Below, in pieces: positions 2,886 to 17,973 of a stretch of 24,840 nt of DNA; positions within the stretch are counted from its first letter, which is position 1; the number at the start of each line of letters is the position of its first letter. The stretch lies in the NCBI GenBank assembly GCA_964419615.1, contig CAYQPU010000024.1:1-24840 (forward strand). The letters are read 5' to 3'. Made by a program: the position numbers and the translations under genes. The notes under the pieces were generated by a model. The model saw nothing but the letters and a program-made list of their open reading frames with translations. It did no database searches and was not told the origin of the DNA. The DNA comes from an uncultured Methanosarcinales archaeon. GTDB lineage: Archaea > Nanobdellota > Nanobdellia > Woesearchaeales > JAGVZT01.

Positions 2886-3205
2886 ACAAAAAAGCAAACC
2901 TTGCTCACAATTGGGTTGAATACTTTTTTTTAGGTTTGGGTATTGTCGGGTTTATAATTGCAGTTAGAGCCAAAACTCCATTCTTAAATTATCTAACAAT
3001 TATAATATGTGGTCTTCTTGGAGGAAGATTTATTTATAAACTCAGAAACAGTCTTAGACTAACTCTTTACCTTTTATTTATGGGGTTCTTAGTAGGCTAC
3101 ATTCTTGGAAGCACACAAGCATCAAGAAAACTTGTACTAATCTTCTTTGTTGTAAGCTGCTTTGTAAGCTATTACTCTCACATAAAGGACTATATTAAGG
3201 TTTAG
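2882..3205 (+). CDS. Small membrane protein (3-4 TM)
   Basis: Hydrophobic segments, ATGA overlap with the M50-like gene. Confidence 0.75.
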   Translation: MNKKANLAHNWVEYFFLGLGIVGFIIAVRAKTPFLNYLTIIICGLLGGRFIYKLRNSLRLTLYLLFMGFLVGYILGSTQASRKLVLIFFVVSCFVSYYSHIKDYIKV

Positions 3206-12614: not shown

Positions 12615-13397
12615 TTACTTCACCAACTTCCGGATTTCCTCAGCTTTTTTTATGCCAAGGTCTACCATTTTATCAATATCATCCATTGATAATGCAAAAT
12701 CTCCTCCCTTTTGTAATGCACAAATGCTCCCATCCTCAAGTGTTGTAACTGTTAGTCTTGCATCAAGTGCTTTTTCTTCATCAACAGTTGGATCAACAAT
12801 AAAATGTTCTCCAATTTTTAACACTGTAACAGACACAGGTATTCTATCAAGCTCTAAACTTTTTTTAGTCTTTTTCTTATAATCAATAATACCGTCTTTA
12901 ACTTCAGGGTACTTTGAATTTTTCAAAGCTGCTAGTGCAGCAAGAGCAGCAGCATCTTTAATATTACCCTCATCATTCACAGTTACAACATCAATACAAA
13001 CTAGCCAACAGCTCTCTCCTTTGTCAATGCACAATTTCTTTAAATCAATTGCTTTGCTTTCTCTGATACCTCTATCAACCACTCTGGCAATTTCAATACT
13101 ATCAATTCCAGGTGGTCCTGATTCAAACTCAGGACTTGCCATTGGTAATAATTCAGCGTTTGTAATAATAACACCATCTTCTGGCCTATCAGGATAAGGT
13201 TTATCCAATGATAATTTGATACCTGCTAAAACAACTGTTCCACCAATACTAACTTTTGCAGAACCTTCTGCAGTTTTAACAATATCCTGTTCAATCTTAA
13301 CCTCTCTAAATTCCTCGTTCTTTCTTCCATCAAATCTCATGCCTTTATCTAAGACACTAATCATGTGTGCTTTTAGATCTTCATTCATTATGATCAC
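12615..13397 (-). CDS. rrp42: Exosome complex component Rrp42
   Basis: RFDGRKNEEFR, AEGSAKV, FESGPP, ARVVDRGIRES, DEGNIKDA, RNase PH fold, operon position. Confidence 0.95.
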   Translation of the reverse strand: MIIMNEDLKAHMISVLDKGMRFDGRKNEEFREVKIEQDIVKTAEGSAKVSIGGTVVLAGIKLSLDKPYPDRPEDGVIITNAELLPMASPEFESGPPGIDSIEIARVVDRGIRESKAIDLKKLCIDKGESCWLVCIDVVTVNDEGNIKDAAALAALAALKNSKYPEVKDGIIDYKKKTKKSLELDRIPVSVTVLKIGEHFIVDPTVDEEKALDARLTVTTLEDGSICALQKGGDFALSMDDIDKMVDLGIKKAEEIRKLVK

Positions 13398-15514: not shown

Positions 15515-16235
15515 TCACCTGCTTATGCAGTCTTTCTATTTTGTCTTTTGCAATCTTTACCATCTTTGGTTTATCTGTCTCAACATAAGCAGCATCAATT
15601 CTATCAACACTAAAGTCTTTTCCTAAAAGTTTGGATAATGCTTTAATAGCAAGAATCAAACATTGCTCAATAGTAAGTGTCTTTTTGTATTCCTTATGAA
15701 GCAGTTCTTCTACAAGGGCTTCGCCCTCTCCAATCACTGTTGCATTGTACTGAAAGAAAATTCCAGTAGGATCTGTCTCAAATAATTTTGGACCATCTTC
15801 ATCAATACCTGCAATTAATAATGAAACACCAAACGGTCTTAGTCCTCCAGACTGAGTACAAATCTGCTTTAAGTTAGCAAGATCTTTTACAATACTCAAA
15901 ATATCAACCGGAGAATCATAAGTAACTCTATGTTGTTGTGCTCTCATTTGAGCCCTTTCAATTAAAACTCTTGCATCTGATAATATTCCAGATGCAGTAG
16001 CCATCATATGATCATCCACTTGGAAAATCTTTTCCACAGCATCTGCTACAACTAACTTATCTACAATTCTTTTATCTGTAACTAGTAAAACTCCATCTTT
16101 GCACGCAAATCCAATAGCAGTTGATCCCTGCTTAACAGTTTTCTTAGCATATTCAACCTGAAGTAGTCTACCATCTGGACTAAACAAGGTAATTGCTCTA
16201 TCATAACCCATCAATTGATGTGGCATTGCTTCCAT
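15504..16235 (-). CDS. psmA: Proteasome alpha subunit
   Basis: GYDRAITLFSPDGRLLQVEYA, RPFGVSLLIAG. Start set at ATG 16235 from the SD GAGGTGA at 16244-16250. Confidence 0.97.
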   Translation of the reverse strand: MEAMPHQLMGYDRAITLFSPDGRLLQVEYAKKTVKQGSTAIGFACKDGVLLVTDKRIVDKLVVADAVEKIFQVDDHMMATASGILSDARVLIERAQMRAQQHRVTYDSPVDILSIVKDLANLKQICTQSGGLRPFGVSLLIAGIDEDGPKLFETDPTGIFFQYNATVIGEGEALVEELLHKEYKKTLTIEQCLILAIKALSKLLGKDFSVDRIDAAYVETDKPKMVKIAKDKIERLHKQVNGK

Positions 16236-16582: not shown

Positions 16583-16628
16583 CTTATCAAATATCCCATT
16601 CCAGTGGGTTTTTACCGGAGAAAAAAAC

Positions 16629-16650
16629 TATTTAACCCGTTCTTCTCCTT
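16629..16650 (-). promoter_or_regulatory. BRE/TATA promoter of the pop5-exosome operon
   Basis: Minus strand reads AAGGAGAAGAACGGG-TTAAATA, about 47 nt upstream of the pop5 ATG. Confidence 0.45.
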
Positions 16651-16681
16651 TCTCTCTCACATATATGGGATATTGTTTTTA

Positions 16682-16689
16682 TTTATAAA
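16682..16689 (+). promoter_or_regulatory. TATA box of the candidate ncRNA
   Basis: TTTATAAA positioned -28 to -21 from G16710, the first base of the long stem. Confidence 0.55.
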
Positions 16690-16709
16690 TGTTGCGTAGT
16701 AATAGCCAA

Positions 16710-16868
16710 GGTTAGTGCCTCCTAGGCCAGATTTAAGTGAACAAGGCTTAGTGGCTCGTAAGATGCAATTCGGAACTGTTTGTCTTATGAGAATAATTAT
16801 CGCAAAAAGAATCCATATATATTAATAACAAACAGCCGAGTGAACCGGCCAGGAGGCGCTAACCACCA
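16710..16868 (+). ncRNA. Unassigned structured RNA of about 160 nt
   Basis: 16710-16723 GGTTAGTGCCTCCT pairs with 16851-16864 (14 bp, one U-G pair that favours the + strand). GGCC 16725-28 pairs with 16847-50. TTCGG-AA-CTGTTTGT 16769-83 pairs with ACAAACAG-CCGAG 16828-40. GC-enriched island in intergenic AT-rich DNA, ends in ACCA. Confidence 0.7.
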
Positions 16869-16941
16869 ATTTTAGCTATCTACCTGAGATACTTTTATTA
16901 ATTGATAATGATTCCCAATTAATAAATCAAGATATATAAAA

Positions 16942-17598
16942 ATGGAATCTGACAAAACACACAATTATTTGGTGATCACAAATGACAGTATTGACCAAGA
17001 AGATGATAGATTTCAAAGATTTCAAGCTTCAATTGCTCCTTATTTAAAACATGAGATACTTAAGTATAATGGTTTTGTGGGTGATCTAGTTCATTGTGTG
17101 GATCCAAATTCAGAGAATTCATTAAGATCCCTTTCAATCTACAGAGAGATTCCCGCAGATGCAGATCTTGATTTCGAATTTTTCCTTGAAATAGTTGATG
17201 CAAATTGCATTAAAATTAAAGATGAACTTAGACTTAGAACCTGTTTCCAAAGAATTAAACTAGGCATTCACACTTCAACAATCGGCTCATTCACTGAAAC
17301 AGGGACTATTGAAGAAATGCTTGATGTGGGTGTTCACAAATTAGAATTAAGTCCAACAGATCATGTTAACAAAGCATTCAGTTATCAAAACCCCGAATTT
17401 GCAGATTCATTTACAAGACCAAAATACCTTTCAACAAAAGGTGAAAGATTGCTATTACCAACAACTGTTACAATTGGTCTTGAAGTAGATACTGAGCAGT
17501 ATGTATACACTCTAGTAAAGCATGAGTATGAACAACCAGTGAGTGGAATAGTATTTCCAGCATTAATCTTAAAACCTATAATTATTACTAATTCTTAG
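16942..17598 (+). CDS. Divergent class III nucleotide cyclase-like protein
   Basis: Colinear matches to the cyclase homology domain: VITND, EILKYNG-FVGDLV, RIKLGIHT, TDHVNKA, GERLLLP. The ORF is solid; the family call is tentative. Confidence 0.45.
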   Translation: MESDKTHNYLVITNDSIDQEDDRFQRFQASIAPYLKHEILKYNGFVGDLVHCVDPNSENSLRSLSIYREIPADADLDFEFFLEIVDANCIKIKDELRLRTCFQRIKLGIHTSTIGSFTETGTIEEMLDVGVHKLELSPTDHVNKAFSYQNPEFADSFTRPKYLSTKGERLLLPTTVTIGLEVDTEQYVYTLVKHEYEQPVSGIVFPALILKPIIITNS

Positions 17599-17655: not shown

Positions 17656-17973
17656 ATGACAACAAAACTAGATGATTGGATGAAATTCTTTATAAGACCA
17701 ACAAAATTACCAATGCCTGAAAGTCTTAGAATTAAGGTATTGGCAGGAGACGATTATTCTTATGGAAATATGGAGACTAGGGTACTAGAGTGGCAATCTA
17801 TAGATAGAGATGATTCAGAAGTTGCTGCAAAGATTGGCAGTAAAAGCGGGACTACTATTAGTAAAGCATATAATGTACCAATTCTAAATCTAAAAGCTCA
17901 ATCTTGGTACTATGCTTATGACCCGATTGATGGAGAATATCTTGGGACCTGTAGTTTAAGTGAAGATTATTAA
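17656..17973 (+). CDS. Hypothetical protein
   Basis: 105-aa ORF with TTTATTAA about 28 nt upstream. No family recognised. Confidence 0.65.
   Translation: MTTKLDDWMKFFIRPTKLPMPESLRIKVLAGDDYSYGNMETRVLEWQSIDRDDSEVAAKIGSKSGTTISKAYNVPILNLKAQSWYYAYDPIDGEYLGTCSLSEDY

Follow-up and report, generated by a model that had tools for sequence, protein, structure and literature searches.

The window analysed here, a stretch of 24,840 nucleotides, belongs to a 1.48 Mb, 99% complete Woesearchaeota genome (G000) and carries, at positions 16710 to 16868, an intergenic sequence that had been put forward as an undescribed structured RNA gene of about 160 nt with its own TATA box. The sequence stands divergent from an RNase P protein gene, as originally described; the neighbour is pop5 (PF01900), followed by the genes for proteasome alpha and SBDS. 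On the other side lie two ORFs on the + strand, of 218 aa (16942-17598) and 105 aa (17656-17973), neither of which has a Pfam family or a paralogue in the genome.

The + strand of 16710-16868 folds with a minimum free energy of -54.3 kcal/mol (z -5.7; 0/200 shuffles equally good), and the minus strand more weakly (-48.2 kcal/mol, z = -3.9). The fold reproduces the closing helix of the original prediction on the + strand, in which 16710-16728 pairs with 16847-16864 through 14 bp, an A bulge (16724) and GGCC/GGCC (5′ GGCC at 16725-16728). This helix is also seen in the covariation of the family described below, since 14 of its 18 pairs change on both sides in an alignment of 18 copies, in all of which (18/18) the GGCC is invariant. 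Inwards follow, all on the + strand, a 5′ junction (16729-16775; mean pairwise identity 0.61) with semi-conserved GTGA..AG.C, CGTAAGA and GGAAC; a conserved 8-bp inner stem, the two strands of which, CTGTTTGT (16776-16783) and ACAAACAG (16828-16835), are paired in 97.9% of the alignment cells with three pairs changing on both sides; the hypervariable AU-rich loop of 44 nt that this arm encloses (16784-16827), with a pairwise identity of 0.38 against a chance expectation of 0.31; and a 3′ junction (CCGAGTGAACC, 16836-16846), in which a GAAC is conserved among the aligned copies.

Weak remnants of outer inverted repeats flank this core, so that the length of about 160 nt first given fits the core (about 155-160 nt), the full extent of the element being longer, at approximately 16700-16884. 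The left remnant (TAATAGCCAA, 16700-16709, + strand) is degenerate and recognisable by alignment with locus L082 of the genome G001, the left end of which is GACAATGTCAACTACTC, the window's left end being some 12 nt shorter. The right remnant (the ACCACCAATTTTAGCTATCTACC region, 16865-16884, + strand) is equally degenerate and is placed by alignment with L082, where TTAATTTGACATTGCC forms the right end and the duplication CCCACTAG comes next, and by the centroid fold of the window copy, in which ATAGC (16702-16706) pairs weakly with GCTAT (16875-16879). Rfam has no match at gathering score in the whole window, in agreement with what the original prediction expected, and matches at E<=10 between 16600 and 16960 are noise only, the best being ylbH with 16 bits against a cut-off of 50.

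The element is one of about 25 scattered copies, not a single-copy gene. Sensitive blastn finds around 19 dispersed relatives in its own genome, about 150 nt long and 60-74% identical, and a covariance model raises the number to 24 full copies and a partial one. The same model recovers about 30 copies in G001, a MAG from Suakin Deep and the sole other genome of the genus. It has no match at E<=1e-3 in any of 59 further genera of the order, a tally in which G006 (unpublished, 65% complete) is counted. When 185,579 species genomes were scanned for the core pattern, multiple matches came only from the G001 assembly (Candidatus Woesearchaeota, Suakin Deep). All of the G000 copies checked (19/19) are intergenic, sitting between real genes and overlapped by short spurious ORFs only; they occur in every orientation relative to the neighbouring genes and in divergent, convergent and tandem contexts, and no protein family recurs among their neighbours.

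Homologues and covariation, proposed at the outset as a check, were both found. The alignment of 18 copies has a covarying outer helix, the invariant GGCC/GGCC, the 8-bp inner stem and a loop of about 40 nt that cannot be aligned. In the conserved structure (outer helix, GGCC/GGCC and CWGTTTGT/ACAAACWG) 90.9% of the cells are paired and 17 pairs change on both sides, with 0/500 shuffles as high, and individual helices are 88-98% paired at an overall identity of 60-74%. Conservation in G000 is uneven, with identities of 1.0 for the GGCC, 0.9 for the inner stem and about 0.6 for the junction, some unpaired positions of which are invariant, down to the near-chance value of the loop. Other parts of the fold first proposed do not extend beyond the window. 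The UUAAGU/GCUUAG and GUAA hairpins predicted in the 5′ junction exist in the window copy only and, together with the lower CGG/CCG part of what had been described as a 13-bp arm, are 58% paired across the 18 copies, equal to shuffled controls; it is the 8-bp stem of that arm which the family keeps. Similarly, the ACCACCA in which the window copy terminates is not conserved in the alignment.

Does this pairing speak for an RNA? The original prediction noted that several G-U pairs work only on the + strand, and this holds for the window copy, which has two G-U and no A-C mismatches. Over the 24 copies of G000, however, helix mismatches are 16 G-U against 19 A-C, figures that do not point to selection for one strand of RNA. 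All 56 matches together give 61 G-U against 32 A-C, an excess that comes from the related young copies of G001 and from the model-fitted alignment. Flanking signals are no more oriented: TATA-like motifs stand on the 5′ flank in 14/24 and on the 3′ flank in 11/24 of the G000 copies, T-runs number 10 and 7, respectively, and across the 24 copies no promoter or terminator signal is tied to orientation.

The clearest footprints of transposition are in G001. Here a young subfamily has terminal inverted repeats, GGCAAAGTCAAC(TACTC), just beyond the modelled core, with direct repeats immediately outside; the GGCAAAGTCAAC ends are inverted and 176-197 bp apart, which is the full element in young copies. 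Six G001 copies are bounded by perfect (9/9) target-site duplications (CTATAACTT, TTATTGAGA, CTTTGTAGG, TTTAGAATG, AAAGTTCTC and CAAAAAAAG). The 13-mer end GGCAAAGTCAACT has 16 exact matches in G001, most of them forming inverted pairs with a spacing of about 180 bp or standing at the end of a contig, and no exact match in G000. Synteny between the two genomes reveals some sites filled in both and at least four that are polymorphic, L078, L080, L083 and L084 being filled in G001 only. At L080, where both flanks align, a single CTAAACCTT in G000 faces CTATAACTT-element-CTATAACTT in G001, the 9-mer of the empty site being a diverged copy of the duplicated one. On a tree of the cores, short branches unite 11 of the G001 copies in one clade, which points to a recent burst.

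The four empty sites of G000 lie in the window itself at about 3180-3205 (C24) and on three other contigs (C22, ~26745-26768; C27, ~13092-13150; C19, ~15520-15561), and their counterparts in G001 are young copies with a perfect 9-bp duplication, making clean before-and-after pairs. G001 also has longer variants with the same ends, of 335-474 bp (L079 and L092-L095, e.g., G001:C48:17969-18442 and C33:4348-4694), apparently nested or composite and none of transposase-coding length. At another locus (L081), G000:C19:797-952 and G001:C40:45271-45428 adjoin the same two genes, in differing order and orientation, and a 19-nt flank, TTTACAATATATTTTTAAA, recurs reverse-complemented on the opposite side; this suggests that the DNA was rearranged locally or, alternatively, that a separate insertion occurred at a site associated with repeats.

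The copies of G000 look older. None of the 24 retains an intact consensus end and none has a convincing duplication, the share of copies whose best flanking 9-mers agree at >=8/9 (13/24) being in weak excess over the controls (34%). The window copy has no recognisable target-site duplication, but a copy at the matching site of G001 does. This one (L082, G001:C42:14968-15124) lies between pop5 and a diphthamide-synthase gene, has the ends GACAATGTCAAC and GGCAATGTCAAA and is bounded by the duplication CGCACTAG/CCCACTAG; in both genomes the element begins directly after ...TAG and has the same orientation. Copies that share a position in the two genomes do not group as sisters on the core tree, and the orthology of the window copy rests therefore on the shared junction and not on its sequence; the loops of such copies resemble each other no more than the background does. 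Both the 218-aa and the 105-aa ORF are missing at the syntenic G001 site, where the repeat abuts the diphthamide-synthase gene, and they have the look of a lineage-specific insertion beside the repeat. A function of the element as 5′ leader of the 218-aa ORF, or as part of an RNA-plus-protein module, was considered and rejected on their absence from that site, their want of paralogues or Pfam families, and the want of any recurring neighbour family.

The same comparison settles to whom the TATA box belongs. As originally noted, TTTATAAA is present before the element; it occupies 16682-16689, which in the window copy puts it at a distance of about 25 nt from where the core starts. It is part of a region, TTTATTTATAAATGT (16678-16692), that is identical at 15/15 positions in G001 and lies there outside the target-site duplication, and is therefore promoter DNA of the host, not the element's own. 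The pop5-side flank, this region included, has an identity of about 85% in the two species. The same figure applies to the upstream region of pop5 (window 16583-16660), which includes, on the minus strand at about 16626-16636, a GGGTTAAATAG that is better placed than TTTATAAA to be the TATA box of pop5.

Taken together, these observations speak against an undescribed ncRNA gene, since the sequence is a dispersed repeat with terminal inverted repeats, 9-bp duplications and empty sites in the other genome, and has neither a promoter and terminator of its own nor strand-specific covariation. They lead instead to the alternative that the original prediction had itself named, a MITE-like inverted repeat. 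The window element is very probably an old copy that has ceased to move, belonging to a family of miniature inverted-repeat transposable elements that is specific to the genus and uncatalogued. The published definition of prokaryotic MITEs names their size, inverted repeats, direct repeats lost as copies age, a location in AT-rich intergenic DNA and a stable stem-loop (PMC10969869, section 2.1), and the features seen here agree with it. The present family is non-coding and short (<500 bp, with the core and young-copy lengths given above), is multicopy with insertion polymorphism between related genomes, and has inverted repeats in G001, reduced in the window copy to degenerate remnants, along with target-site duplications that include the copy at the window's site. 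That the window copy has no recognisable duplication is what would be expected of an old copy (PMC10969869). An autonomous partner with the same ends was not found in any of the sets searched.

Mechanistically, the element would be a non-coding derivative, of about 190-205 bp, of a cut-and-paste (DDE-type) transposon, whose transposase would act in trans, recognise the terminal inverted repeats, insert the MITE and duplicate 9 bp of the target. The hairpin fold would then be a consequence of a long imperfect palindrome, the pairing of which would be kept at the DNA level, partly because the copies derive from sources that were themselves palindromic; template switching, by which one arm of a quasi-palindrome corrects the other, a process established elsewhere, may contribute. 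Such upkeep of pairing in the DNA would explain ‘compensatory’ changes that come without a preference for G-U. Insertion beside the pop5 promoter would reflect the capacity of short, AT-rich intergenic DNA to receive and tolerate such elements.

In search of the transposase, IS256-type genes (PF00872) were looked for in the five genomes G000-G004 and no match was found, which removes this candidate. With IS256/Mutator-type elements, which make 8-9-bp duplications, the family shares the 9-bp target duplication and probably an end that starts with a G(G/A)NAAAGTC-like sequence; yet, with no PF00872 in those genomes, membership is not established. Matches to PF01609 and PF03400 have different ends or none that match: the IS4/5-like gene, one per genome, has ends (GGCTCTGTCCAAAA) unlike those of the family, and no ends can be recognised on an IS1-like fragment of G001, so that neither qualifies as the partner. 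The IS4/IS5-type DDE transposase genes are at G000:C2:51060-51455 and G001:C58:13890-14381, the latter with an internal TGA and with 18-bp inverted ends, GGCTCTGTCCAAAATAGA, unrelated to those of the repeat. In G001 no pair of family ends stands at transposase-coding spacing; a 17-mer of the end has 56 matches in metagenome contigs, with no match to the covariance model among them; and searches of viral contigs, phage records and plasmids gave neither copies nor a partner element. Autonomous partners are frequently missing from MAGs, and for this reason the missing partner does not exclude MITE membership.

The family has much in common with known prokaryotic MITEs such as SM1-SM4 of Sulfolobus, those of Haloquadratum and Halobacterium, and QMITE2 of Coxiella: all are non-coding and <500 bp, end in terminal inverted repeats, occupy AT-rich intergenic sites in many copies and fold into a strong stem-loop, and their direct repeats, of 7-9 bp, are seen in young copies and lost with age (PMC10969869). 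Unlike them, it has no found parent insertion sequence bearing matching ends, is present in two Woesearchaeota genomes only, and has a covarying conserved core that surrounds a hypervariable loop. A literature search returned no paper connecting MITEs and Woesearchaeota. Bacteria have other dispersed palindromic repeats, among them Correia/NEMIS, ERIC, BOX and RUP, the transcripts of which are long hairpins that can affect neighbouring genes, and several of which have no clear target duplications. In contrast, transposition of the archaeal family is documented.

This interpretation removes a candidate ‘new archaeal ncRNA’ from the vicinity of pop5 and replaces it by a copy of a MITE family. 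In addition, it provides a record of recent transposition in a small DPANN genome, where the family amounts to about 2% of intergenic-scale DNA, and of a recent burst in the relative from Suakin Deep; small DPANN genomes are usually thought of as streamlined. Of wider interest is why dead copies should retain a conserved core around a saturated loop. Simple neutral decay does not predict a core that stays conserved in the dead copies of G000 whilst their loops approach chance identity; possible causes are turnover of copies, gene conversion and selection acting on the core.

The last of these possibilities underlies the strongest rival explanation, in which the core is a functional small RNA or protein-binding module, which the transposon brought along or which was exapted once in place; we regard it as unlikely. 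The copies would be expressed from nearby host promoters and the loop of about 40 nt would hold copy-specific information, e.g., as a guide or a decoy. More precisely, the outer helix, GGCC clamp, GTGA/GAAC junction and 8-bp stem would be a module selected at some 25 places, and the ends a mere vehicle, a proposition to which we give little weight. If true, it would amount to a mobile, lineage-specific family of small-RNA genes in a DPANN archaeon. The strong rate heterogeneity within old copies, from an invariant GGCC to a near-random loop, and the persistence of paired helices in sequences so divergent are what it would predict, and in the window copy both the distance from the TATA box to the core and the better folding of the + strand agree with it. 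Against this, G-U is not preferred over A-C in G000, TATA-like motifs and T-runs are unbiased between the two sides, the TATA box is host DNA beyond the duplication, no neighbour protein recurs, the family is limited to one genus and matches no Rfam family, and the loops have no significant matches elsewhere in the genome. The chance level of those loop matches is also the reason for which a genome-targeting guide RNA was rejected.

A DNA-level element of the host, that is, a cruciform or hairpin with an insulating, terminating or regulatory function between the pop5 operon and the adjoining genes, is much less probable still. It would suit this reading that in both genomes the element lies between genes and next to a conserved promoter, and that the pairing is symmetric and strand-neutral. 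The copies, however, occupy divergent, convergent and tandem contexts with no common neighbour, and loci that are otherwise conserved have a copy in one congener and lack it in the other. An integron attC-like site can be discarded, since the copies are dispersed rather than arrayed and have inverted-repeat ends and target duplications.

A reading of the copies as tRNA genes, or genes related to them, in disguise has next to no probability. The idea owes its appeal to the low number of tRNA matches (RF00005) in the 99% complete G000, only 10, alongside its 25 or so element copies, and to the ACCACCA at the end of the window copy. Yet this tail is not shared by the family, the T-loop motif is missing, as the original prediction had noted, and so are D-loop motifs, with no signal from ARAGORN in the window or from Rfam, and the inverted-repeat ends and target duplications show transposition. 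Relatives free of the element have low numbers too (14-22, including a complete single-contig genome), so that low tRNA counts are order-wide and the hypothesis of hidden tRNA genes falls. Over the relatives (G001-G004 and G023) the Rfam tRNA model gives 10-22 matches, with 14 in the complete single-contig genome, and most tRNA genes of the order seem to escape standard detection. Many of the matches are 100-165 nt long, i.e., intron-bearing.
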